Shown: one piece after another, positions 17,000-64,000 of the stretch
Numbering within the stretch: position 1 is the first letter of the stretch
How the letters are laid out: the number at the start of each line of letters is the position of its first letter
DNA from: Myxococcota bacterium
GTDB lineage: Bacteria > Myxococcota_A > UBA9042 > PHBI01 > JAWLBL01
Length of the DNA: 64,000 bases
Reading direction: 5' to 3'
NCBI GenBank assembly: GCA_041687695.1
Contig: JAWLBL010000025.1
Location: 76,129-140,128 of the forward strand
The notes under the pieces: model-generated
Database searches by the model: none
What the model saw: only the letters and a program-made list of their open reading frames with translations
Told to the model about the DNA's origin: nothing
Translations under genes and position numbers: made by a program

Positions 17000-21871
<4,872 letters not shown>

Positions 21872-21882
21872 GTGCGCCTCGC

Positions 21883-24800
21883 TCAGTCGATGCAGTACAG
21901 GGTGCCGGCGTCGTCCCCGAAGACGACGTAACCCGGCCCGATGGCCGCCGCGCCGTCCACGGCGGCGCCGGTCGTGAAGGTCCACAGCGTCGAGCCGGAC
22001 TGGGTGAACGCGTGGAAGCGGCTGTTGCCCGCGCCGACGTAGACGTCCCCGTTGGTGTCGAAGACCGGCGAGGCGCCCGGGGCCGAGGGCTTGCTGACGC
22101 TGGCGGTCCAGCTGGTGCCCAGCGCCGAGGTGAAGCGGCGCAGGCCGGTGCCGCCCTGCGGCGACACGAACACGAAGTCCTGGGGGTTGCAGCACTGGAA
22201 GCCGGTGTTGTGGATGGCCAGGTTCGAGTGGTTGGTCGAGCCGGTGCCGACGGTGGCGACCTGCACGGCCTGCGCGCCGGCGTCGTTGATGGCGTACAGG
22301 GTCGAGCCGAAGGTCTGGTAGAGCGTCCCGGTCTGCGAGACGACCACCGAGCCGCCGGCGGACTGGCCCGAGACCGCGAAGGTCCACAGGACGGCGCCGT
22401 TCTTGTCGACGGCGTAGACCTTGTGGTCGGCGGCGGCGAAGTAGACGCGGCCGCTCGGGCCCAGGGCCAGCTCGGCGTGCTTGGTCTTGCTGTTGGGGAC
22501 GGGGGTCGACCAGGCGACGACGCCGTCGGGGCCGACCCGGTGCAGGGCGGCGTTGGTGACGACGTAGGTGTTGCCGACCGCGTCGACCAGCGGGCTCGCG
22601 ACGATGACGTCGTCGTCGGCGCCGGGCAGCGGGGTCGCCCAGATGGTGCTGAGATCGGGCCGCACCATCAGCAGCTCGCGCCCGGCGGGGACCAGCATCG
22701 TGCCGCCGGCGCGGACGCTGGGGCTGGCGCGTTTGAACGCTGGCGCGGGCAGGTCGCGCTCGTACAGGGTCGCGCCGTTCGAGGCCTGCAGGCGGAAGAG
22801 CTTGCTGCCGGCCAGGGCGACGATGCTGCCGTCGTCCAGGATGACGGGCGAGCCCTCGAGCTCGGCGCCCGCGACCAGCGTCTTCTTCCAGCGCAGCCCC
22901 GAGCCGCTCGAGGTCGGCGCCGACACCAGCATCGAGTGGCCGATGCGGCGCGCGTCGAACAGGTAGGTCGGCCAGCCGGTGGTCGACAGCCCGCAGCCCT
23001 CGTCGACCACGCCGTCGCAGTCGTCGTCGATGGCGTTGCAGGTCTCGCTCGCGTCGGGGCGGACCGCCGCCGCGTCGTCGTCGCAGTCGCCCCCGCGGCT
23101 CGCCGTGTGGTCGCCCTCGGAGGCGCACAGGCACAGGGCCGAGCCGTCGTCGCCCCAGGTGTCGCCGTCGACGTCCTCGTACAGGGTGACGCAGCCCTCC
23201 ACGCCGACGCCGTCGGTCTGCCCGTCGCAGTCGTCGTCGACGCCGTTGCAGGCCTCGACCTCGTCCGGGTTGCGCGCCGGGTTCGCGTCGTCGCAGTCGC
23301 CGGCCTCGGCCGCCGTGTAGGCCGCCAGCGGGCTGCACAGGCACAGCGACGCTCCGGCCACGCCGAACCCGTCCCCGTCGCCGTCGAGGAAGTAGGTCGC
23401 GCACCCGGCCGCGTCGGTCTCGTCCACGAAGCCGTCGCAGTCGTCGTCGACGCCGTTGCACACCTCGGCGACGCCCGGGTGGCGCTGCGCGTCCTCGTCG
23501 TCGCAGTCGCCGCCCACGCCCACCTGGTAGGGCGGCGCCAGGGCGCACAGGCACTGGCCCGACCCGGTGACCCCGTAGCCGTCCCCGTCCCCGTCGACCA
23601 GGTACTCCACGCACCCGCCCGCCCCCTCGGGGTCCGTCAGCCCGTCGCAGTCGTCGTCGACCCCGTTGCAGGTCTCGGCCGCGCCCGGGTTCACGGCCGC
23701 CACCAGGTCGTCGCAGTCGCCGCCGATGAAGGCCCCGTAGCCGTCGCCCGGCGCGCACAGGCAGCGGGTGTCGCCCGCCACGCCGAACGTATCGCCGTCC
23801 TGGTCCAGCATGTACGGGTAGCACCCGACCGCGTCCGCCTCGTCGACCGCACCGTCGCAGTCGTCGTCCTGGCCGTTGCACTGCTCGGTCGCCTTCGGGT
23901 TGAACGCCGCCTGCAGGTCGTCGCAGTCGCCCCCCTGCGTGGCCGTGAACGTCCCCTTGGGCGCGCACAGGCACTGGGCCTCGTCGGTCCGGCCGAAGGT
24001 GTCGCCGTCGGTGTCGCGGTAGTAGACCGTGCAGCCCTCGATGTCCGGGTCGTCGGCGACGCCGTTGCAGTCGTTGTCCAGCCCGTCGCAGACCTCCTCG
24101 GCCCCGGGCGAGATCTGCGGCGCCAGGTCGTCGCAGTCGCCGCCCACCGTCGCGACGTAGGGCGGCGCCGGCTCGCACAGGCAGCGCACGTCCGATGCGA
24201 CCCCGAACCCGTCGCCGTCGGTGTCGCGGAAGTAGTCCGTGCACCCCTGGGCCCCGGCCTCGTCGGTCGCCCCGTCGCAGTCGTCGTCCAGCCCGTTGCA
24301 CACCTCGGCCGCGCCCGGCCACGCCCCGGCCTCGTCGTCGTTGCAGTCGCCGCCCTGCTGCGTCGTCCACGGCGCGGCGGCCCCGCACAGGCACTGGTAG
24401 TCGGCCTGCACCCCGAAGCCGTCCCCGTCGCCGTCGCGGAACCACAGCGCGCACCCGACCGCGCCCACGTCGCCCGGGTCGCCGTTACAGTTGCGGTCCA
24501 CGTCGTCGCACTGCTCCTCGGCCAGCGGGTGCACGTCCTTGTCGCCGTCGTCGCAGTCGCCGCCCTTGACGGCGACGTACGGCCCCTCGGGCTTGCACAG
24601 ACACTGGCTGTCGCCCGTGACGCCCCAGCCGTCGCCGTCCGCGTCCCGATAGAACGGCGAGCACGCGAGATCCACCGCCTCGTCCGCCTCGCCGTCGCAG
24701 TCGTCGTCGATCTGGTTGCAGACCTCGGCCGCGTCCGGGTGGACCAGCGGGTTCTTGTCGTCGCAGTCCAACGCGGCCGCGTCGGCCACGGCCACCGTGA

Positions 24801-26751
24801 AGGGCAGGGCGGGCGCGCACAGGCACCGGGTCTGCCCGTCGACCGCGAAGCCGTCCTGGTCCAGGTCGGCCAGGTACTCGGTGCACCCGGTCGCTCCCTC
24901 CTCATCGATGAAGCCGTCGCAGTCGTCGTCCAGGCCGTTGCAGGCCTCGACCCCGCCCGGCTTGGCGTCGGCCGACAGGTCGTTGCAGTCGCCGCCCTGG
25001 GCCGCCGTGTAGGGCGCCGCCCCCTCGCACACGCACTGCAGATCGCCCGACAGGCCGAAGCCGTCCCCGTCCTCGTCCCGGTAGGCCGGCGCGCACCCGA
25101 CCGCGCCCGGCTCGTCGACGAGGCCGTCGCAGTCGTTGTCGACGCCGTCGCACACCTCGGGCAGCTGCGGGTTGCGCTCGGCGTCGCCGTCGTCGCAGTC
25201 GCCCCCGACCGTCACGACGTAGGCCCCGGCCGGCGCGCACAGACACGCGAAGGCCTGCTTGTCGCCGAAGCCGTCGCCGTCGGCGTCCTCGAAGTACAGG
25301 ACGCACTTGCCCGCGCCCTCCTCGTCGGTCTGCCCGTCGCAGTCGTTGTCCAGGCCGTCGCACAGCTCGACCGAGCCCGGGTTCGCCTTGGGCTCGGCGT
25401 CGTCGCAGTCGGTCTTGTCCTTGGCGGTCATGACGCCCGCCGGCGCGCACAGGCAGGCGCTGACGGCGGCGTCCCCGTACCCGTCGCCGTCCACGTCGGC
25501 GAAGTAGCCGAAGCACCCCGTCGCCCCCGGCTCGTCCGTCTCCCCGTCGCAGTCGTCGTCCAGGCCGTTGCAGACCTCGAAGCCGCCCGGGTTCGCCTTC
25601 TTGGCCGCGTCGTTGCAGTCGCCGCCCTTGGTCGCCGTCAGCGCCCCCTCGGGGCCGCACAGGCAGACCGGCTCGCCGACGCCCCAGCCGTCGCCGTCCT
25701 CGTCCAGGTAGTGGTCGACGCAGCCGCTGCCGTCCTCGTCCGTCTCCCCGTCGCAGTCGTCGTCCTTGCCGTTGCAGACCTCGGCGGCGGGCGCGACGCC
25801 CTCGCAGGTCACGCCGCCCTCGCCGCCGCAGGCCGTCACGCCCGGGCAGCTGCCGTGCGCGTTGTCGATGGCGCAGGGCTCGCTCGCGAAGCCCTCGTCG
25901 ACCGCGCCGTCGCAGTCGTTGTCGACGCCGTCGCACAGGTCGGGGCTCGGCTCGGCCGCGTCGCAGGCCGTCAGGGCGCCCGCCGGGTCGTCCGGCGCGC
26001 ACCGCCGCTCGCCCGGGCACGAGCCGGCGGCGTTGGTGTGGTGGCACGTCGTCCCCAGCCCCAGCGCGGTCGCCTTCGGCGAGCACGCGCAGGTCCCCGT
26101 CTCGGGGACGCACTGCTCGCTGACCGCGCCCGTGACGTCGGCCACGGTCGCGCAGAAGTAGCCCGCCGGACAGCCCGCCTTGTCGCAGGCGCCGCCGCAG
26201 AAGGCGCCGTCGTCGCCGGCCGCCACGCACCGGTGCGGGGTCGAGTCGTGCTTGGTCGTGCAGTCCGTGTTCTGCGTGCACGGGTCGCACAGGGTCGGGA
26301 AGCGCGGCAGGCACAGGTACAGCACGTCCGGCAGCGCCGACAGGTCCTGCCGGCACGCGAAGTCCCCCGGGCAGCTGGTCGTGCACCCCTTCGAGCAGAC
26401 CTTGCCGCTGGGCGCGTCGACGCAGTAGCTGCTGTTGCAGTCGCCCTCGGTCTGGCAGGGCCAGCCCAGCTCTCCCTCGGTGGGGACGTACGGCCCCAGG
26501 TCGCCCTCGACGTCGGCCCCCACGTCCGCGACGTCCGGCGTCACGTCGGGCCCGCTCGCATCCACGACGTCCGTCGGGTCCGGCTTGGTGTCCCCGCCCG
26601 CCTCGACCGAGGCGTCCTCGGCCGACGAGGTCGCGTCGCCCCCACAGCCGGCGGCCACCACGGCGAGCGCGAGCGCCAGCGCCGCCGGCCACCCAACGCT
26701 CGCCGGACCCCGCCTGGGCCCACCACAAACCGCGCGACGTGCGACTCGCAT
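21883..26751 (-). CDS. Giant Cys/Asp-rich surface lipoprotein with C-terminal PQQ-like beta-propeller, copy B
   Basis: GGAGG before ATG 26751; lipobox-like AAGC; 13 units of the same repeat; same architecture as copy A. Confidence 0.85.
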   Translation of the reverse strand: MRVARRAVCGGPRRGPASVGWPAALALALAVVAAGCGGDATSSAEDASVEAGGDTKPDPTDVVDASGPDVTPDVADVGADVEGDLGPYVPTEGELGWPCQTEGDCNSSYCVDAPSGKVCSKGCTTSCPGDFACRQDLSALPDVLYLCLPRFPTLCDPCTQNTDCTTKHDSTPHRCVAAGDDGAFCGGACDKAGCPAGYFCATVADVTGAVSEQCVPETGTCACSPKATALGLGTTCHHTNAAGSCPGERRCAPDDPAGALTACDAAEPSPDLCDGVDNDCDGAVDEGFASEPCAIDNAHGSCPGVTACGGEGGVTCEGVAPAAEVCNGKDDDCDGETDEDGSGCVDHYLDEDGDGWGVGEPVCLCGPEGALTATKGGDCNDAAKKANPGGFEVCNGLDDDCDGETDEPGATGCFGYFADVDGDGYGDAAVSACLCAPAGVMTAKDKTDCDDAEPKANPGSVELCDGLDNDCDGQTDEEGAGKCVLYFEDADGDGFGDKQAFACLCAPAGAYVVTVGGDCDDGDAERNPQLPEVCDGVDNDCDGLVDEPGAVGCAPAYRDEDGDGFGLSGDLQCVCEGAAPYTAAQGGDCNDLSADAKPGGVEACNGLDDDCDGFIDEEGATGCTEYLADLDQDGFAVDGQTRCLCAPALPFTVAVADAAALDCDDKNPLVHPDAAEVCNQIDDDCDGEADEAVDLACSPFYRDADGDGWGVTGDSQCLCKPEGPYVAVKGGDCDDGDKDVHPLAEEQCDDVDRNCNGDPGDVGAVGCALWFRDGDGDGFGVQADYQCLCGAAAPWTTQQGGDCNDDEAGAWPGAAEVCNGLDDDCDGATDEAGAQGCTDYFRDTDGDGFGVASDVRCLCEPAPPYVATVGGDCDDLAPQISPGAEEVCDGLDNDCNGVADDPDIEGCTVYYRDTDGDTFGRTDEAQCLCAPKGTFTATQGGDCDDLQAAFNPKATEQCNGQDDDCDGAVDEADAVGCYPYMLDQDGDTFGVAGDTRCLCAPGDGYGAFIGGDCDDLVAAVNPGAAETCNGVDDDCDGLTDPEGAGGCVEYLVDGDGDGYGVTGSGQCLCALAPPYQVGVGGDCDDEDAQRHPGVAEVCNGVDDDCDGFVDETDAAGCATYFLDGDGDGFGVAGASLCLCSPLAAYTAAEAGDCDDANPARNPDEVEACNGVDDDCDGQTDGVGVEGCVTLYEDVDGDTWGDDGSALCLCASEGDHTASRGGDCDDDAAAVRPDASETCNAIDDDCDGVVDEGCGLSTTGWPTYLFDARRIGHSMLVSAPTSSGSGLRWKKTLVAGAELEGSPVILDDGSIVALAGSKLFRLQASNGATLYERDLPAPAFKRASPSVRAGGTMLVPAGRELLMVRPDLSTIWATPLPGADDDVIVASPLVDAVGNTYVVTNAALHRVGPDGVVAWSTPVPNSKTKHAELALGPSGRVYFAAADHKVYAVDKNGAVLWTFAVSGQSAGGSVVVSQTGTLYQTFGSTLYAINDAGAQAVQVATVGTGSTNHSNLAIHNTGFQCCNPQDFVFVSPQGGTGLRRFTSALGTSWTASVSKPSAPGASPVFDTNGDVYVGAGNSRFHAFTQSGSTLWTFTTGAAVDGAAAIGPGYVVFGDDAGTLYCID

Positions 26752-32127: not shown

Positions 32128-32200
32128 AGCGTCGTCGGCTCGGCCTCACCGGGCGCACGACCGCATGAATCCTACCGCGAACGCGTGTTTTCGATCTGCA

Positions 32201-32392
32201 GGACCCTTCGCGGCAGCTGCGAGGCCCTGTCCCAGCCGCCAGAGGACCTTCGCGGCCGCCGCGAAGCCATGTTGGACCTGCAAGAGGGCTTCGCGGCCGC
32301 TGCGAAGCCCTGTTGGACCCGCGAGGGGGCCTTCGCGGCAGCCGCGAAGCCCTGTTGAACCCGCAAGAGGCCTTCGCGGCCGCCGAGACGGC
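32201..32392. repeat. Intergenic array of five palindromic REP-like units, 41-42 bp period
   Basis: TTCGCGGC at 32207, 32249, 32290, 32332, 32373; core CTTCGCGGC-N-GCYGCGAAG is self-complementary. Confidence 0.8.
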
Positions 32393-52863: not shown

Positions 52864-52956
52864 GCCCGCGCGTAACAGGCTGCGACATCCGGCCCGGGTG
52901 GGGATGAATCCTCGCGCGACCCCGTGCTACAGTGGGCCTCCCACTCGGAGGTCCCT

Positions 52957-55900
52957 GTGTCGCACGGTCGCACGGCCGAAACGTTTGCTCCCCGCCCCGA
53001 ACCGGTCTTCGGCGTTGCGGCGCGCCATGGGCGCTGGCGCGCGCTGCTGGTCGTCCTGTCGGCCCTGGCGTTCGGGGCCACGTCCCTCGGATGTGGGGAC
53101 GAGTCCGGCGGCGAGCCGGGCAGCGACGACGTCGGTGACGCCAAGGCCGACGACACGGCCGACGCAGCCGCCGACGCCGCGGTGGACGCCGCCGACGAGG
53201 ACGCCGTGGTGCCGGGCAGCTTCGGCCAGCCGTGCACCGGGTCGGACGACTGCCTGTCGGGGTGGTGCGTCGCGGGCCCGGACGGGCTGGTCTGCACCGA
53301 GAGCTGCGTGTCGACCTGCCCGGACGACTGGCAGTGCCGCGAGATCAAGAGCGCCTCCGGCGACCCGGTGTTCATCTGCATCAACCCGATGGCCGAGCTG
53401 TGCCACCCGTGCGCCAACGACGCCGACTGCAACAAGACCGTGGTCGGCGGGGGGAACCGGTGCCTGGGCGACGACGTCGACGGGCGCTTTTGCGGCGTGG
53501 CCTGCGGCGAGGAGGGCGTCGCCTGCCCCGAGGGATACGCGTGCGAGGCGGTCACGGGCGCCGACGGCGAGCCCGCCGAGCAGTGCGTGCCGACCGGCGG
53601 CGCCTGTGAGTGCAACGGCCTGGCCAAGCAGCTGAGCCTGTTCACCGGGTGCCTGCTCGACAACGAGCACGGCACCTGCGAGGGCGTGCGCCTGTGCGGC
53701 GCCGAGGGGCTGAGCGCGTGCGACGGGACCGCGCCCGGCCCCGAGACCTGCAACGGCTTCGACGACGACTGCGACGGGCAGACCGACGAGGACCTCGCCG
53801 AGGTCGCCTGCACCATCGACAACGCGCACGGCAGCTGCCCCGGGACCGAGCGCTGCTCGTTCGGGGCGCCCGTGTGCGACGGCACGCCGCCGACCGCCGA
53901 GATCTGCAACGGCAAGGACGAGAACTGCGACGGCGTCGCCGACGACGGCTTCCCCGACACGGACGGCGACGGCGAGGCCGACTGCATCGACACCGACGAC
54001 GACGGCGACGGCGTGCCCGACAACGTCGACTGCGACCCGCTCGACGCGGGCGTGTACCCGGGCGCGCCCGAGGTGTGTAACGGCAAGGACGACGACTGCA
54101 ACGGCGTCACCGACGACGAGGGCGCCGAGGGCTGCGAGCCGTGGTTCCTGGACAAGGACGGCGACGGCTTCGGCAACGACGGCGTTGCGACGCGGTGCCT
54201 GTGCGGCCCGGACGCCCTCACGTCGTTCACGGCGAAGGTCGGCGGGGACTGCAACGATCTCAACGGCGTGGTCTTCCCCGGCGGCGGCGAGCTGTGCAAC
54301 GGCCAGGACGACGACTGCGACGGCGAGACGGACGAGCCGGTGGACCTGGGATCGTGCCTGGTCGAAAACGAGCACGGCGCCTGCCCCGGCCAGCAGACCT
54401 GCACCGATGGCGTGGTCGCCTGCGACGGGCCGACGCCGCAGCCCGAGCTGTGCAACGGCGTCGACGAGGACTGCGACGGCCAGACCGACGAGGGCTTCCC
54501 GGACACCGACGGGGACGGGGTGGCCGACTGCGTCGACTTCGACAACGACAACGACGGCGTGCCGGACGTGCTCGACTGCGCGCCGACCGACCCGGACATC
54601 TACCCGAACGCACCCGAGCTCTGTAACGGCAAGGACGACGACTGCGACGACCTCGTCGACGAGGAGGACGCGCAGGGCTGCACCGAGTGGTTCCAGGACG
54701 CCGACCAGGACGGCTTCGGCTCCGACGCCATGGAGGCCAAGTGCCTGTGCGGCGCCGACCCGCTCATCTACTACACGGCCAAGGCGCAGGGGGACTGCAA
54801 CGACATCATCCCGTCGGCGCACCCGGGCGCGGCCGAGGTGTGCAACGGGGCGGACGACGACTGCGACGGCGCGACCGACGAAGGGGTGGCGTCGCCCTGC
54901 GGCACCTGCGGCGGGCTGTGCGTCCTCGAGGTCGGCCCGAACAAGGCGCGTGAGTTCGAGCCGCTGGCCACGCGGTCGTCGGCGGTCACGTTGAACGCGT
55001 CCGGGGCGCTGGTGCTGGACGCGGCGGCGGCCGGGACGCCGTGGGTCTGGGTGCCCAACACGTCCGACGGCACGGTCTCCAAGCTCGACGCCGCCAGCGG
55101 CTGCGAAGTGGCGCGCTACAAGGCGTGCTCCGGGGCCAGCCGCGTGGCGGTCGATCGAGGCGGCAACGCGGTCGTCGCGTGCGTGGGCGACGGGCGCGTC
55201 GTGCGCATCGCCGGCCACCCCTCGGCCTGCCCCGACGAGGACGGTGACGGCGTGGTCGCCACCTCGGCCGACGCCGACGGCAGCTGCACCATCGAGGCGT
55301 CCGAGCAGGTCGCCGCCGACGAGTGCGTCCTGTGGACCGCCCAGCCGGACGGCGCCGGCAGCCAACCGTGCGACCTGGGCACCGCGGGCTGCGCGCGGGC
55401 CGTCGCCGTGGACGACGCGGGCGACGTCTGGGTCGGGCTGTGGAACTCCAAGAAGCTGTACCGCCTGAGCCCGGTCGACGGCGCCACCCAGGCCACCCAC
55501 ACGCTGACGGTCCGTCCGACCGACATGGCGGTGGGGCAGGGCGGCGTCCTGTGGATCTCGTCGCGCGACCCGCACGCGCTGGCGCGCTTCACCGTGGCCA
55601 CCGCCGCGCTGAAGTCCTGGCCGGCGCCCTCGGGCACGGCCGAGGGCCTCGCGGTCGACCCCTACGGGAACGTGTGGCTCGCCGGAGGCATCGCCGGTGA
55701 CGTCGCGCGCTTCGATCCCGCGGCCGAGCAGTGGCAGACGGTCCCGGCCTTTGGAAAGGGCCACGCGCGCAACGTGGCCGTGCAGGCGCAGCGCGACGGC
55801 GCGGGTGCGCTGACCGGCGCCAGGGTCTTCGTCGCGCACCACACGGCGCCCTCGTGCACCCAGGCCGGGATGCACCGCACGGTCTCGGTGGTCGACGCGC

Positions 55901-56448
55901 AGAGCCTGGCCGTCCTCGACCCGCTCGATCTCGGCGCCGACCGCGGCCCGGTGGGGCTGGCGGTCACGGGCGCCGGCCACGTGTTCACGATGAACCAGTG
56001 CGAGAGCACCGTCACCCGGCTCGACCCGGCCACGGGGTCGGTCCTCGGCACCGCGCCGGTGGGCGCCGGGCCGCTGGCCTACGGTGACCCGTCCGGCGCC
56101 GCCCTCAAGCTCGACGGCACCCACCAGGGCTACTACCGCCAGATCTTCGAGGGCTGGCCGCTCAGCGGCACGTCTTGGGACCAGCTCATCCTGCAGGCCA
56201 AGCTGCCGGGCGCCGGCAAGACCTCGGTCTCCCTGCGCTACCGCTTCGCCGCCAGCGCCGCCGCCTTGCCCGCGGCCGCCTGGCAGGGCCCCTTCGGCCC
56301 GTACCCGCCCGCGGCCTTCCCGCTGGTCCTCGGCGAGACCACCGGCCCGGGCGCCGCGCTCGAGGTCGAGGTCACGCTGAAGACGACCGACCCCGCGGTC
56401 GTCCCGACCCTCGAGCGCATCTCCATCATCGCCTCCGAGGTCCCCTGA
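52957..56448 (+). CDS. Cys/Asp-repeat surface lipoprotein with thrombospondin type 3-like Ca motifs and Vgb/NHL-like beta-propeller
   Basis: GGAGG before GTG 52957; lipobox SLGC; same N-terminal Cys module as the two giant proteins; DTDGDG.ADC.D.D.DGDG motifs; propeller blades VAVDDAGDVWV, LAVDPYGNVWL. Confidence 0.82.
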   Translation: MSHGRTAETFAPRPEPVFGVAARHGRWRALLVVLSALAFGATSLGCGDESGGEPGSDDVGDAKADDTADAAADAAVDAADEDAVVPGSFGQPCTGSDDCLSGWCVAGPDGLVCTESCVSTCPDDWQCREIKSASGDPVFICINPMAELCHPCANDADCNKTVVGGGNRCLGDDVDGRFCGVACGEEGVACPEGYACEAVTGADGEPAEQCVPTGGACECNGLAKQLSLFTGCLLDNEHGTCEGVRLCGAEGLSACDGTAPGPETCNGFDDDCDGQTDEDLAEVACTIDNAHGSCPGTERCSFGAPVCDGTPPTAEICNGKDENCDGVADDGFPDTDGDGEADCIDTDDDGDGVPDNVDCDPLDAGVYPGAPEVCNGKDDDCNGVTDDEGAEGCEPWFLDKDGDGFGNDGVATRCLCGPDALTSFTAKVGGDCNDLNGVVFPGGGELCNGQDDDCDGETDEPVDLGSCLVENEHGACPGQQTCTDGVVACDGPTPQPELCNGVDEDCDGQTDEGFPDTDGDGVADCVDFDNDNDGVPDVLDCAPTDPDIYPNAPELCNGKDDDCDDLVDEEDAQGCTEWFQDADQDGFGSDAMEAKCLCGADPLIYYTAKAQGDCNDIIPSAHPGAAEVCNGADDDCDGATDEGVASPCGTCGGLCVLEVGPNKAREFEPLATRSSAVTLNASGALVLDAAAAGTPWVWVPNTSDGTVSKLDAASGCEVARYKACSGASRVAVDRGGNAVVACVGDGRVVRIAGHPSACPDEDGDGVVATSADADGSCTIEASEQVAADECVLWTAQPDGAGSQPCDLGTAGCARAVAVDDAGDVWVGLWNSKKLYRLSPVDGATQATHTLTVRPTDMAVGQGGVLWISSRDPHALARFTVATAALKSWPAPSGTAEGLAVDPYGNVWLAGGIAGDVARFDPAAEQWQTVPAFGKGHARNVAVQAQRDGAGALTGARVFVAHHTAPSCTQAGMHRTVSVVDAQSLAVLDPLDLGADRGPVGLAVTGAGHVFTMNQCESTVTRLDPATGSVLGTAPVGAGPLAYGDPSGAALKLDGTHQGYYRQIFEGWPLSGTSWDQLILQAKLPGAGKTSVSLRYRFAASAAALPAAAWQGPFGPYPPAAFPLVLGETTGPGAALEVEVTLKTTDPAVVPTLERISIIASEVP

Positions 56449-61021: not shown

Positions 61022-61642
61022 ATGCGCATGCTCTTCAGTCGCTCCTCCCTCCTGGCCGCCAGCGCGCTGGCCGTGCTCGGCGCCCAAGCCTGTAGCGGCG
61101 CCGACCGCAAGGACGACAAGCCGGGGTTCGTGGCCCTCGAGGTCGACGGCGACAGCGAGATCGAAAAGCTCGACCTCAACGAGGACGGCAAGCCCGAGGT
61201 CTTCCGGTACTACAACCGGCTCGGGTCGCCCGAGACGCCCCGCGAGCAGCGCGAGCGGGTCCTCGCGCGCAAGGACAGCGATCTGAACCGCGACGGCAAG
61301 ATAGACATGCGCGAGCACTACACCCGCCAGGGCCAGATCGCGCGCATCGACATCGATCTCGACTTCGACCAGAAGTTCGACGCCACCCACTTCTTCCGCG
61401 ACGGCGAGGACTTCCCCTTCCGGGTCGAGTACGTCACCGATTTTTCGGGCCAGACCGCCATCTGGAAGTTCTACAAGGCCAAGGACCTCGTCGAGCGCAA
61501 GGAGCTCGACACGACCGGCAACGGCAAGCCGGACGTCTTCGAGTACTACGACGACAAGGGCACCCTCCTGCGCGTCGGCTACGACCGCGACGGCGACGGC
61601 AAGCCCGACTACTACGAAGAGGCCGGCGACAAGAAGGGGTGA
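61022..61642 (+). CDS. Lipoprotein with repeated DxNxDG/DxDxDG Ca-binding-like hairpins
   Basis: Lipobox-like AQAC; DLNEDGKP, DLNRDGKID, DLDFDQKFD, DTTGNGKPD, DRDGDGKPD. Confidence 0.75.
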   Translation: MRMLFSRSSLLAASALAVLGAQACSGADRKDDKPGFVALEVDGDSEIEKLDLNEDGKPEVFRYYNRLGSPETPREQRERVLARKDSDLNRDGKIDMREHYTRQGQIARIDIDLDFDQKFDATHFFRDGEDFPFRVEYVTDFSGQTAIWKFYKAKDLVERKELDTTGNGKPDVFEYYDDKGTLLRVGYDRDGDGKPDYYEEAGDKKG

Positions 61643-61648
61643 GGGCGG

Positions 61649-61757
61649 GTGCTGAGGGCGGGGTAGCTGCGTACTGAGGGTGGGGTAGCTGGGTACTGAG
61701 GGTTGGGTAGCTGCGTACTGAGGGTGGGGTAGCTGGGTGCTGGGCTGGCGTAGCTGG
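61649..61757. repeat. G-rich tandem repeat, 22-bp unit x4 plus one degenerate copy
   Basis: GTRCTGAGGGYKGGGTAGCTGS at 61649, 61671, 61693, 61715. Confidence 0.9.
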
Positions 61758-61880
61758 GTGCTGGGGTTCAGCGGGGCTGCGGTACGTGGGTGCTGGGGTT
61801 CAGCGGGGCTGCGGTACGTGGGTGCTGGGGTTCAGCGGGGCTGCGGTACGTGGGTGCTGGGGTTCAGCGGGGCTGCGGTA
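61758..61880. repeat. G-rich tandem repeat, 32-bp unit x3.8
   Basis: GTGCTGGGGTTCAGCGGGGCTGCGGTACGTGG at 61758, 61790, 61822 and partial at 61854. Confidence 0.92.
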
Positions 61881-62140
61881 GCCTCCGCTGCGGCCGGCCT
61901 CAAGGGCTTTGTCCCCCTTGGCCGACCTGACGGCCGGCCAATTCCTCGCGGACGACAAAGCCCTCGACCCCTGCCTCCGCTGCGGCTGAGTGGCTGATAT
62001 CGGCCCGGAAGGGGGCCTTCCGGGCCGCTTCGCGTCCCGGCGCGGCGCTGAGGGGCCGAGAGCCTGAACCCGGCCGCCCAGCGAGCTCCCCTCGCGGGTC
62101 GAGCCTGGTCGTCGTGTGCCGGCATGGACGGCGACTCGAC
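61881..62140. other. Hairpin-dense non-coding tract (candidate structured RNA/ssDNA element)
   Basis: Stems 61903-61913/61954-61964, 61918-61924/61935-61941, 62001-62012/62016-62027, 62081-62095, 62098-62140; 14-bp direct repeat at 61881 and 61973. Confidence 0.45.
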
Positions 62141-62159
62141 AATTAAACAAGCATCCAGT

Positions 62160-62281
62160 TCGCCGTCCCGGGGCGGAAGCTCGTCCTCCCGGGGCGGAAG
62201 CTCGTCCTCCCGGGGCGGAAGCTCGTCGTCCCGGGGCGGAAGTCGTCGTCCCGGGGCGGAAGTCGTCGTCCCGGGGCGGAG
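62160..62281. repeat. Tandem array of a 20-21-bp imperfect palindrome, six copies, immediately 3' of the HNH gene
   Basis: TCCCGGGGCGGA at 62166, 62187, 62208, 62229, 62249, 62269. Confidence 0.92.
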
Positions 62282-62282
62282 G

Positions 62283-63536
62283 TCATCCACGAGCTGCTCG
62301 CCCGGACCGACGGTCGCCCCTTTCGTCCCGGGGCGGAAGGGACTTGGCGCGCCGCTCGCCGACCTTGTCGGCGACGAACCCGGCCCCCAGCTCCTGGCGG
62401 GTGATGAGCAGATTGTGGGCCTGACAGACGACCCGGATGTTGTCGACCGAGTGAGCGCCGCCCCTGGCGAAGGCCTCGTCGTGATGCAGCTCCAGCCGGC
62501 GGGTCTCCGTGCACCGTCCTCCCGGGCCCTCAAAGGTGCACCGCAACCCGTCCCGCTCCACGACGGCCCGCTTGACCTCGGCCGGGATGGCGCGGCTGCG
62601 ATCGGTCGGCGCCGACTTCGACGGGTCGGTTTCCGTTGCGACCGACTCGTCCGCCACGGCCACGCTCTCGGCCGACTCTCCGGCCATGGTCACGCTCTCG
62701 CCCGACTCGTCCGCCACGGCCACGACGCTCTCGGCCGACTCTCCGGCCGTGGCCACGCTCACGCCCGACTCGGACGCCTTCACGATGACCTTCTTCGTCC
62801 GTCGCTTGGCCCCGACCCCGAAGCGCTGCTTCTTCTTCGTGGCCAGGAAGACGTCCAGGGCCATCTCCAAGAGCGTCTCGTAGTCTCCGGACGCGACCTG
62901 ATGCCCGGCCAGCGCCATGGCCTCCTCGAGCTTCGCCGCCACCCGCGCGCCCACGGTCACCTGCACCCGATACCGACTCTCAGACAGCGGCTCGACCCGG
63001 TGCTTCGGCTTCGGCTGCTCCAGCGTCAGCTCGGTCGCCGGCCTCGCTTCGGTCCGCTTGGGCGCCTCCGCCCGCGCTCCGCCCCGGGGCGGAGGCAACT
63101 TGAACACCCGCGCCGGCGCATCAGGCCGCGGCGACCACTTGGCCACCAGCTCGGCCAGCTCCCGCTTGCTCTTCCCGGCGGCCTCGGCCAGCCGCTCGCC
63201 GACGTTCTCGTCGCCCAGATGCGGCCCAATCACCCGCACCCCGCTCAGGTTCAGCCGCCCATCGGCCAACATGGCGCCCATCTCGGGCCACCGCCGCACC
63301 CACCCGACGGCCTTCACATAGTTGTAGGCCTTGTCCTCACCAAAGCCCCACCGCGTCCGGCACCACTCGAACAGCGACGGGCTGCCATCGCAAAGGTGAA
63401 GCTCCCTGGCCTCGACCTCGGCCAGATGAACGACCAGATTGGCCGTCGTCCGCCGCTCCAGAACGACCAGCTCACCGACCCGCCCAAGCAGCCGCTCGTC
63501 GGACAACTTCCCCAGCACTTCCAAGCCCTTGCTCAT
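62283..63536 (-). CDS. HNH endonuclease with DUF222-like helical N-terminal region
   Basis: GGAGG before ATG 63536; LSDERLL..ERRTTANLVVHLAEVEARELH..SLFEWC; C-terminal RAIPAEVKRAVVERDGLRC..RC..LELHHDEAFARGG..DNIRVVCQAHN. Confidence 0.88.
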   Translation of the reverse strand: MSKGLEVLGKLSDERLLGRVGELVVLERRTTANLVVHLAEVEARELHLCDGSPSLFEWCRTRWGFGEDKAYNYVKAVGWVRRWPEMGAMLADGRLNLSGVRVIGPHLGDENVGERLAEAAGKSKRELAELVAKWSPRPDAPARVFKLPPPRGGARAEAPKRTEARPATELTLEQPKPKHRVEPLSESRYRVQVTVGARVAAKLEEAMALAGHQVASGDYETLLEMALDVFLATKKKQRFGVGAKRRTKKVIVKASESGVSVATAGESAESVVAVADESGESVTMAGESAESVAVADESVATETDPSKSAPTDRSRAIPAEVKRAVVERDGLRCTFEGPGGRCTETRRLELHHDEAFARGGAHSVDNIRVVCQAHNLLITRQELGAGFVADKVGERRAKSLPPRDERGDRRSGRAARG

Positions 63537-63563
63537 CCCGCAGCCCTCCCAATCGAGGCCTGC

Positions 63564-63572
63564 AGCATAACA
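63564..63572 (-). promoter_or_regulatory. Putative extended -10 element of the HNH gene
   Basis: Minus strand TG-T-TATGCT about 28 nt upstream of the ATG, followed by a GGGAGG SD. Confidence 0.35.
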
Positions 63573-63793
63573 CGGGGGTCTCACTCCCCTCGGAGCACCC
63601 CCTGGACGGCCGTTCAGCCCTCTCGGACGACTCGCGACGACCCTCACCCCGGATCAGGGCCCTGTGAAGCCAGCCAGAGGCCTCCCAGACCCTCCCTTGG
63701 CACGACCCCGGATCGACCAGAGCGCGCCCCATAAATCCGTCAACAACTATTTGCGTCCTGGCCGCGTCCGGATGTCGTTTTTTCGGCCCCTCC

Positions 63794-64000
63794 TTCCGCC
63801 CGGGGACGACGACCCGGACTCCCGCCCCGGGACGACGACCTGCGCAACCCGCCCCGGGACGACGACCGCGGCAACCCGCCCCGGGACGACGACCGCGGCA
63901 ACCCGCCCCGGGACGACGACCGCGGCAACCCGCCCCGGGACGACGACCGCGGCAACCCGCCCCGGGACGACGACCGCGGCAACCCGCCCCGGGACGACGA
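63794..64000. repeat. Tandem array, 27-bp unit, at least eight copies, truncated by the window edge
   Basis: CCCGCCCCGGGACGACGACCGCGGCAA-type units at 63821, 63848, 63875, 63902, 63929, 63956, 63983 plus a degenerate copy at 63794. Confidence 0.93.

Follow-up and report, generated by a model that had tools for sequence, protein, structure and literature searches.

The window, the final 64 kb of contig C25 in a Myxococcota genome assembly of 7.97 Mb with 73% GC, ends in a gene for an HNH nuclease of 417 amino acids (aa) that lies between two inverted arrays of one short motif. We found that this gene, its arrays and an outlying hairpin arm form a real, well-defined and apparently undescribed element, which is very probably a repeated unit subject to gain and loss. 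No description of it was found in the literature searched, subscription journals being largely outside that search. Throughout, G000 denotes the genome of the window and G011, G059, G217 and G267 other genomes; C-numbers are contigs of G000 and L-numbers are loci.

Arrays of palindromic half-sites

The initial annotation described an HNH gene enclosed by inverted tandem arrays of one motif, and this layout was borne out. The left array (62160-62280; 21-bp period, 5.9 copies) begins 3 nucleotides (nt) past the stop codon at 62283-62285. The right array (63796-64000; 27-bp period, 7.6 copies), which is truncated by the contig end, lies 260 nt upstream of the ATG at 63536. Their cores are reverse complements of each other, with different linkers. 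The further claim that the same 18-mer is amplified on both sides held for the orientation and the linkers but not for the unit: the exact 18-mer occurs in 2 of the 6 left units, all six being within two changes of it, and as read from the sequence it is a composite of two palindromic half-sites, meeting at CCC/GGG, rather than the unit itself. It combines the left half of a perfect palindrome, P1 (GTCGTCCC followed by GGGACGAC), with the right half of another, P2 (CCGCCCC followed by GGGGCGG). Since P1 and P2 are both palindromic, the hybrid and its reciprocal are reverse complements, and the inversion of the arrays needs no extra step. A third half-site type exists, and the three types occur in at least seven combinations, a reassortment which points to exchange about the CCC/GGG centre.

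The motif is closely tied to the element. The 15-nt core occurs 146 times in the genome, and 144 of these are found no more than 1.5 kb from a gene copy or an end-arm, a zone that makes up 1.6% of the genome; with such clustering, the array motif is not due to chance. Likewise, 32 of 33 P1 palindromes and 32 of 33 P2 palindromes fall in this zone. The linkers are short (2-15 nt), self-similar, and recur within and between arrays. An outer-to-inner polarity had been proposed for the units; neighbouring units do vary in blocks, but we found no progressive one-way gradient, because linkers recur in the probable continuation of the right array on contig C10. The end of C10 carries an arm, an AT box and 12 units, and it overlaps the end of C25 by 97 nt, though within a periodic array. 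The right-array linker was found only on C10 (7) and C25 (5). The missing upstream end of the window copy, which extension of the contig had been expected to supply, is probably the end of C10.

The features of the locus are given below in window coordinates. The 165-nt hairpin arm, the AT-rich box, the motif copy at the 3' end of the gene, the 18-bp palindrome within the gene and the stretched promoter go beyond those of the initial annotation.

61022-61642, + strand: host gene for a predicted lipoprotein of 206 aa; repeated D-x-D/N-x-D-G motifs, no Pfam family above cut-off
61647-61882, + strand: simple tandem repeats, G/T-rich (22-nt x5.6, 32-nt x3.9), between the host gene stop (61642) and the end-arm
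61877-62039, + strand: end-arm 'E', a nested hairpin of 165 nt beginning GGTAG, inverted relative to the gene; compensatory changes, DNA fold
62141-62161, + strand: AT-rich AATTAAAC box, which in many arms precedes the outermost palindrome unit
62160-62280, - strand: downstream array of 6 units; the gene-strand unit is the hybrid pair P2-left/P1-right
62283-63536, - strand: gene, 417 aa; ParB/Noc-like helix-turn-helix, ribbon-helix-helix and HNH nuclease; distant DUF222 relative, predicted homodimer
62322-62339 (copy at 62327), - strand: additional motif unit within the 3' end of the reading frame, by motif match
62385-62594, - strand: HNH domain, aa 315-384, by fold match
62642-62772: tandem repeats of 30/63 nt inside the gene, in the unfolded linker between ribbon-helix-helix and HNH
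62817-62981, - strand: ribbon-helix-helix domain (aa 186-240) that contributes to the predicted dimer interface
63077-63094, no strand assigned: perfect 18-bp palindrome (P2) within the gene, in the linker after the N-domain
63129-63461, - strand: ParB/Noc/KorB-like helix-turn-helix domain, aa 26-136, by fold match
63564-63572, - strand: extended -10-like box, by promoter pattern
63573-63737, - strand: fixed-length leader, 168 nt between hexamers, nearly indel-free
63738-63743, - strand: -35-like box TTGACG, 168 nt upstream of the -10 hexamer
63796-64000, - strand: upstream array of at least 8 units P1-left/P2-right, running off the contig and probably continuing on the C10 end

The host gene is oriented toward the element, as is the gene preceding the arm on C10. 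The linker length and the repeat type of the gene repeats at 62642-62772 differ among copies, so repeats also expand within the reading frame. The unusual codon use noted at the outset was confirmed: 32 of the 417 codons end in T (7.7%, the 97th percentile of crude gene calls), and six are TTG, compared with 0-2 in each of five neighbouring genes. Elsewhere in the window, a 42-bp tandem repeat (4.4 copies, 32196-32385) is unrelated to the element, and three regions (18143-20911, 23221-25783 and 52924-56448) encode large proteins of 70-aa cysteine-rich repeats with a 210-nt period.

Copies of the element and their gain and loss

A tblastn search of G000 gave 24 loci, of which 22 were counted as family members, with 51-84% identity to the window copy; C12:66320 and C40:19441 were dropped as weak, the latter being a PF02720 gene. 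The HNH and zinc-ligand residues C333, C342, H351, H352, N366, C371, H374 and N375 are kept in 22/22 copies, and reading frames are full length in 21/22. The median ratio of nonsynonymous to synonymous divergence (dN/dS) is 0.215 over 231 copy pairs. With full support, the protein tree separates clade A (15 copies) from clade B (7). P1 stands both upstream and downstream of the gene in 7/7 clade-B copies, one of which also has hybrids. In clade A, P1/P2 hybrids stand upstream of 14/15 copies, the remaining one having pure P2; downstream, these copies either lack such a site or have P2 or the mirror hybrid. Within the gene itself, 14/15 A and 7/7 B copies (21/22 overall) bear a further site of their clade's type in the linker that follows the N-domain. 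The upstream arms of G000 show two alternative pre-array boxes, a AATTAAAC..AATTA type and a GATAG..GTTAT type; the latter was found only in clade-A copies (8 by pattern).

The 165-nt end-arm stands upstream of all 19 copies with enough sequence and, inverted, downstream of seven, with one more partial. Three gene-less units (C3, C7, C27) consist of two facing arms with palindromes between them. Compensatory base changes mark the arm (one pair is C-G 29 times, U-A 4 times and G-C twice) in an alignment from which 11 of 46 arm starts lacking a second hairpin match were excluded, and its DNA fold gives z scores of -3.9 and -5.0 on the two strands, a modest strand bias. Motifs of the form C-GNA-G, with a free middle base, lie almost all on one arm strand (152 vs 7 in 31 arms); motifs of this type stabilise folded single-stranded DNA. 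A choice of strand from G-U versus A-C cells was uninformative (6 vs 10). Outside most arms the sequence is G-rich, copy-specific and often tandem, with 52% G in the outer 100 nt of 46 arm starts, compared with 36% after stops genome-wide. We rejected insertion beside stop codons or between convergent genes, as the nearest outer genes split almost evenly, 18 of 35 facing the arm and 17 facing away from it, on a background of about 38% toward. The idea that the right arm is copied from the left arm of the same element found weak support in arm comparisons. The outer tip of the arm is tandemly duplicated with few flanking bases at C2:186863-186951, C9:2194-2260, C13:387-450, C33:12341-12448 and C3:293017-293117, and whole arms stand head to tail on C3 and C47.

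No close relative of G000 was found that would provide an exact empty site, and the single public run held 5% of words, as short contigs with no usable joint. We therefore compared two species of another genus, G217 and G267, at nine sites (8 of the roughly 14 copies in G217, plus one more site in G267). Six of the nine are filled in one species only, and two of the six empty alleles hold a solo palindrome. At one empty ortholog a solo palindrome is followed by the element's right tail, which resembles an excision scar. These data show gain or loss of the unit and do not tell its direction or rate. The outer junctions are of low complexity and were inspected by eye for target-site duplication, the empty sites being too diverged to fix the ends. 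An internally deleted mini-element (L099) was also present. Altogether, the initial view of a mobile repeated element agrees with a unit that is multicopy, apparently mobile, and sole bearer of its motif. None of the three outcomes named there as refuting it was observed: the motif is not scattered, homologues in G000 do have arrays, and the layout recurs within unbroken contigs.

A number of arrangements around these loci deserve mention. At L092 (980-2630, G217), two identical palindromes enclose 1.6 kb with no HNH gene, holding small toxin-antitoxin-like genes and a transposase remnant, as named from a reading of the frames; this may be a case of cargo capture. At L069 (G059), two palindromes likewise enclose one small gene, with the HNH gene following. 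G217 also has at least 28 copies of an unrelated 1.3-kb element, which stands directly beside three G267 copies (L108 3673-4955, L109 3424-4705, L110 3786-5067) and inside one G217 copy (L093). Beside the left palindrome of L066, a gene that is complete in G267 (L117) is reduced in G217 to a remnant of 48 nt, which suggests a deletion beside the insertion.

Within the phylum, 22 of 251 genomes have family matches, with 1 to 22 copies per genome, as do 24 of 201 genomes in another class. At 50% identity, 10,855 clusters match the family profile with E<=1e-30, some of which may be more distant DUF222 proteins. In G011, nine copies with about 31% protein identity have their own palindrome in short arrays and a branched hairpin arm of about 240 nt, inverted on both sides in 8/9 copies; the sequence of this arm is unrelated to that of the G000 arm, and each is confined to element loci. 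The G011 arm (L021-L029) is a multibranch hairpin of 210-265 nt whose distal stems vary freely yet stay paired, with a fold that is 10-22 kcal/mol more favourable on the inward-reading strand. Only these two genomes showed arrays or long arms, so they read as lineage-specific elaborations, the palindrome and the leader being the more general traits. Homologues with their own co-varying arrays had been anticipated: clade-matched palindromes agree with this, but tandem arrays are not a family trait.

Elsewhere the minimal form is one 18-20-bp palindrome shortly upstream of the -35-like box and the gene, in some cases with the same palindrome at the 3' end; the ends of two G059 copies are 40-bp direct repeats. 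Among 18 fresh loci, the upstream palindrome was present in 10 of 15 scorable ones, compared with 4.8% of 351 background windows. The in-gene palindrome was not seen as a family trait in 41 loci from other genomes under an AC..GT filter.

The leader is the second shared trait. The -35-like and extended -10-like boxes are 168 nt (17 copies) or 169 nt (4) apart in all 21 G000 copies that keep the leader, and no other -35/-10 pair at 160-170 nt was found in this genome, either among 28 other pairs or at 11 Y1 loci. In other genomes the spacing is 162-169 or 176-181 nt, two classes about one helical turn apart, and it is 164-167 nt in 15 of the 18 fresh loci. A promoter whose boxes are separated by 164-181 nt is itself unusual. 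Two copies (L094 and L113, in G217 and G267) have the ordinary spacing of 16-17 nt, which would fit the loss of about 149 nt of leader from between the -35 box and a degenerate -35 close to the -10. No conserved RNA fold was detected in the leader (structure conservation index 0.17-0.27 in G000 and 0.0 in G217/G267), Rfam gave two chance-level rows, none below E 3, and a coding leader was ruled out by stops in most frames and by a length varying by +/-1. Helical periodicity was not significant in G000 (p 0.06-0.21) or in G217/G267; a 10-nt AT period appeared in G011 leaders only (5 sequences, p 0.002). The leader may be looped or wrapped.

A proposed self-targeting nuclease and its rivals

The structure model of the protein, with a mean predicted local distance difference test score (pLDDT) of 82, has three folded parts. 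The first (aa 26-136) matches the DNA-binding domains of KorB, ParB and Spo0J (Z 7.0, 6.9, 6.4 and 5.8; root-mean-square deviation 2.9-4.5 over 91-102 residues); in Foldseek the 10 best rows belong without exception to Noc or ParB, with no E below 0.2, and the top 3 of VIA-align are KorB/ParB. The second (aa 186-240) matches ribbon-helix-helix (RHH) proteins, namely NikR, ParD2, TraM and AmrZ (Z 4.4-5.1), and the third (aa 315-384) matches HNH nuclease folds (Z up to 7.8). PF01844 (HNH) scores 16.7 bits in the window protein, below its cut-off of 21.4, and is matched in 68 of 104 relatives. The protein is predicted to be a homodimer, with a score of 0.73 compared with 0.00 for the best control, and with contact through the long N-terminal helix and the RHH. 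Contact agreement among runs was at least 53% and partner pLDDT at least 64; the mark applied was reached by 20/30 solved homodimers and 1/23 single chains. No DDE, Tyr or Ser recombinase family appeared in Pfam/NCBIfam scans of 104 members or among the fold matches, absence from such a list not amounting to exclusion, and PF01797 (HUH/Tyr, Y1) had no match in the protein.

The putative recognition helix reads EDKAYNYVK in all 14 clade-A copies having it and EDQAWTYTK in 7/7 clade-B copies, so that a clade's palindrome and its predicted recognition helix switch together. In other genomes, Lys at one helix position accompanies AT-centred palindromes in 8 of the 9 loci that gave both readings, and CCCGGG centres go with His, Arg or Gln, an association confounded by kinship. 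According to the part of PMC7383237 available, ParB and Noc bind 16-bp palindromes, of which the Noc-binding site (NBS) is CCCGGG-centred, and four residues switch specificity.

Considering these features, we propose a self-targeting mechanism, to which we give about as much credence as doubt: the nuclease would cut DNA at the palindrome of its own element, and repair templated by further palindromes would both spread the element and give rise to the arrays. The dimer would read the CCCGGG-centred palindrome as ParB reads parS and Noc reads NBS, and the HNH domain would nick or break the DNA near the palindrome centre. The broken half-palindrome could then anneal to another copy, from which host enzymes would copy, with a new palindrome-bounded copy, a hybrid junction, an inverted arm copy or a solo palindrome as possible outcomes. 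With a hybrid junction, P1-left/P2-right at one end would face its mirror image at the opposite end, which would account for the 'inverted' arrays, and repeated short rounds together with slippage would lengthen them. Sites by the promoter and in the gene, along with the 168-nt stretched promoter, would limit expression. Among the roles first suggested for the arrays, binding or cleavage sites near the element ends are still the best reading; they may also be products of the element's own nuclease.

Several points weigh against this mechanism. The fold matches of the N-domain are middling (Z 6-7, Foldseek E above 0.2), and the dimer prediction may owe part of its success to likeness with solved RHH dimers. 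The agreement of helix and palindrome in G000 amounts to one clade split, kin not being independent. HNH enzymes hydrolyse and are not known to carry out strand transfer, so host repair must do the joining. New sites would need a palindrome for annealing, and entry into a palindrome-free site is therefore a weak point. Several lineages show no palindrome. End-matching palindromes are not significant in the fresh loci alone (permutation p 0.20) and give a p of 0.0012 with the discovery loci, after exclusion of loci without a locatable -35 box or HNH end (3/18 new, 7/21 old). G000 has no recent copy pair (minimum dS 0.14) and almost no solo palindromes. The two arms of one element are mutual best matches in the spacer for 3/5 pairs, the window copy not among them, and exact sharing of units was found in 1/10. 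Three of the nine sites compared are filled in both G217 and G267; one empty site has no palindrome, three are confounded by other host genes, and the solo palindrome at the L034 ortholog is of another subfamily's type.

An alternative that we regard as unlikely, yet as the most serious competitor, is that the palindromes are self-repression operators only, that the arrays arose by replication slippage, and that the element moves otherwise, for example through its hairpin arm, on which a transposase of the Y1/RAYT type would act in trans, the HNH protein being a guardian that keeps the element in place. Palindromes just upstream of the -35 box and within the gene would suit operators, and an RHH protein represses IS605 promoters in the accessible part of a preprint (bioRxiv 10.64898/2026.09.24.754181). 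Furthermore, the arm resembles single-stranded DNA ends in its GTAG start, compensatory changes and one-strand C-GNA-G motifs, the gene-less arm doublets recall REP (repetitive extragenic palindrome) doublets, and G000 has 11 Y1_Tnp matches. However, a scan for Y1 transposases, the one transposase family covered, found none closer than 17.9 kb to a copy or arm, and relatives without arms (G217, G059) are still multicopy and polymorphic. That the arms of G000 and G011 are unrelated and restricted to element loci also speaks against a transposase in trans, and operators alone would not explain the second palindrome at the 3' end, the solo scars or the half-site exchange.

Less probable again, in our view, is that the copies are old and largely immobile, kept by host selection or addiction as a regulated or stress-induced nuclease or a chromosome-marking protein, with the repeats as binding platforms. 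The low dN/dS, the intact frames, the lack of any near-identical pair and the three sites common to two species would fit such copies, and one representative protein had no match in 72,556 plasmid or 50,697 phage records. Against it stand the patchy spread and variable copy number across the phylum, presence/absence at orthologous sites with unrelated neighbours at each, the gene-less derivatives and the atypical codon use.

We consider it very improbable that the leader, arm or arrays yield a guide RNA, as in IscB/omega-RNA, CRISPR- or TIGR-like systems. The arm is structured, the leader is of fixed length, and the HNH part matches the IscB model (NF040563) weakly in 71/104 family members; in the window protein, however, this match reaches 23.5 bits against a cut-off of 175 and covers aa 317-382 only, and the structure model contains no RuvC. 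The leader fold is not conserved and lacks an Rfam counterpart, the linkers are 2-15 nt long and resemble each other, and arrays and arms are absent in most relatives. Finally, an assembly artefact deserves next to no weight: the right array does run into the contig end, and 8 contig ends of the assembly carry array units, but the same layout lies well inside contigs C1, C2, C6, C11, C22 and C33 with locus-specific linkers, and only the exact upstream copy number is doubtful.

In its broadest form, the self-targeting mechanism would define a new class of prokaryotic transposon without DDE, HUH, Tyr/Ser recombinase or reverse transcriptase. A ParB-like/RHH/HNH protein would cut its own palindrome, and this short sequence would be a universal adaptor through which the host drives copy-in, excision, cargo capture and the growth of arrays. 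Looping or wrapping of about 150 bp would switch the promoter. Such a class would cover more than 10,000 protein clusters and probably REP13E12. We advance it tentatively, judging it somewhat likelier to be wrong than right. The family is very large, and the papers found do not describe how its named relative, REP13E12, moves. At this locus the ends are defined and there is a candidate recognition site, a single genome contains two natural specificity variants, natural non-autonomous derivatives exist, and relatives offer empty sites, which makes the question directly testable. If true, the proposal would provide a transposase-free route for gene spread and a compact nuclease with a 16-20-bp site that may be retuned via few helix residues.

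Comparison with known systems

Unlike CRISPR or TIGR-type arrays, the arrays described here have no constant repeats with fixed-length unique spacers. Free-standing HNH homing endonucleases, as is generally known, spread by a break and host repair with no transposase, and in this they are alike; homing, however, uses long flanking homology and takes place between alleles, whereas the present copies occupy unrelated sites and have their predicted recognition site at their own ends. ParB-parS, Noc-NBS and KorB-operator pairs resemble the present system in the predicted fold of the N-domain, though at middling scores, and in a palindromic site of 16-20 bp, the CCCGGG centre being common to NBS (PMC7383237, in part). 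The present protein differs from them in lacking a CTPase domain, in being fused to RHH and HNH, and in having its sites only at its own locus.

The likeness to REP-RAYT systems suggested by the initial annotation is loose. REPtrons (RAYT/TnpA-REP, with REP, BIME and REPIN) and TIRtrons likewise place a nuclease gene between inverted palindromic repeats, as far as the excerpts of PMC3733652 and PMC6006769 go. A hairpin arm starting with GTAG (here GGTAG, on both sides of 7 copies, and absent from most copies in other genomes) and gene-less doublets are also shared. On the other hand, the present protein has no HUH/Tyr domain, G000 holds 22 gene copies instead of one per repeat type, and the repeats are not dispersed (144/146 at the element). 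Moreover, the whole gene-bearing unit shows presence/absence here, whereas REPtrons are said in the excerpt of PMC6006769 not to transpose as a unit.

A further comparison is with IS200/IS605 with IscB or TnpB (OMEGA), whose maintenance by cutting and repair is our working analogy for the present element. Its IscB has a related HNH domain, and its Arc repressor sets an RHH protein beside a mobile nuclease (bioRxiv 10.64898/2026.09.24.754181, in part). The present element differs in having no RuvC, no TnpA beside any copy and no conserved RNA structure in its leader, and recognition here is predicted to be by protein.

The named relative of the family is REP13E12/DUF222-HNH of mycobacteria (PF02720 with PF01844), which is also a multicopy gene with a helical N-domain and a C-terminal HNH. 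In the available portions of the sources, DUF222 or REP13E12 is mentioned in passing (PMC3592412, PMC10589994, PMC1931498) and REP13E12 is treated as an unexplained repetitive element (PMC10589994, PMC1931498). Alignment by hhalign with a PF02720 protein of G000 gave a probability of 98.2% and an E of 4.8e-14 over 308 columns, covering the N-domain and HNH. True PF02720 genes of G000 lie at C40:19432-20355 (L124) and C12:173568-174680 (L125, L126), and these and similar loci also have parS-like palindromes of 14-20 bp in or near the gene. The present gene differs in its central RHH and in falling below the PF02720 cut-off: the window protein gave no row, the best family member of G000 scored 21.2 bits against 24.4, and 3 of 104 relatives matched at E<=0.01. 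Its arrays, hairpin arms and stretched promoter were not found described for REP13E12/DUF222. By the Pfam test the element is not a member of that family, but its protein sequence marks it as a relative.

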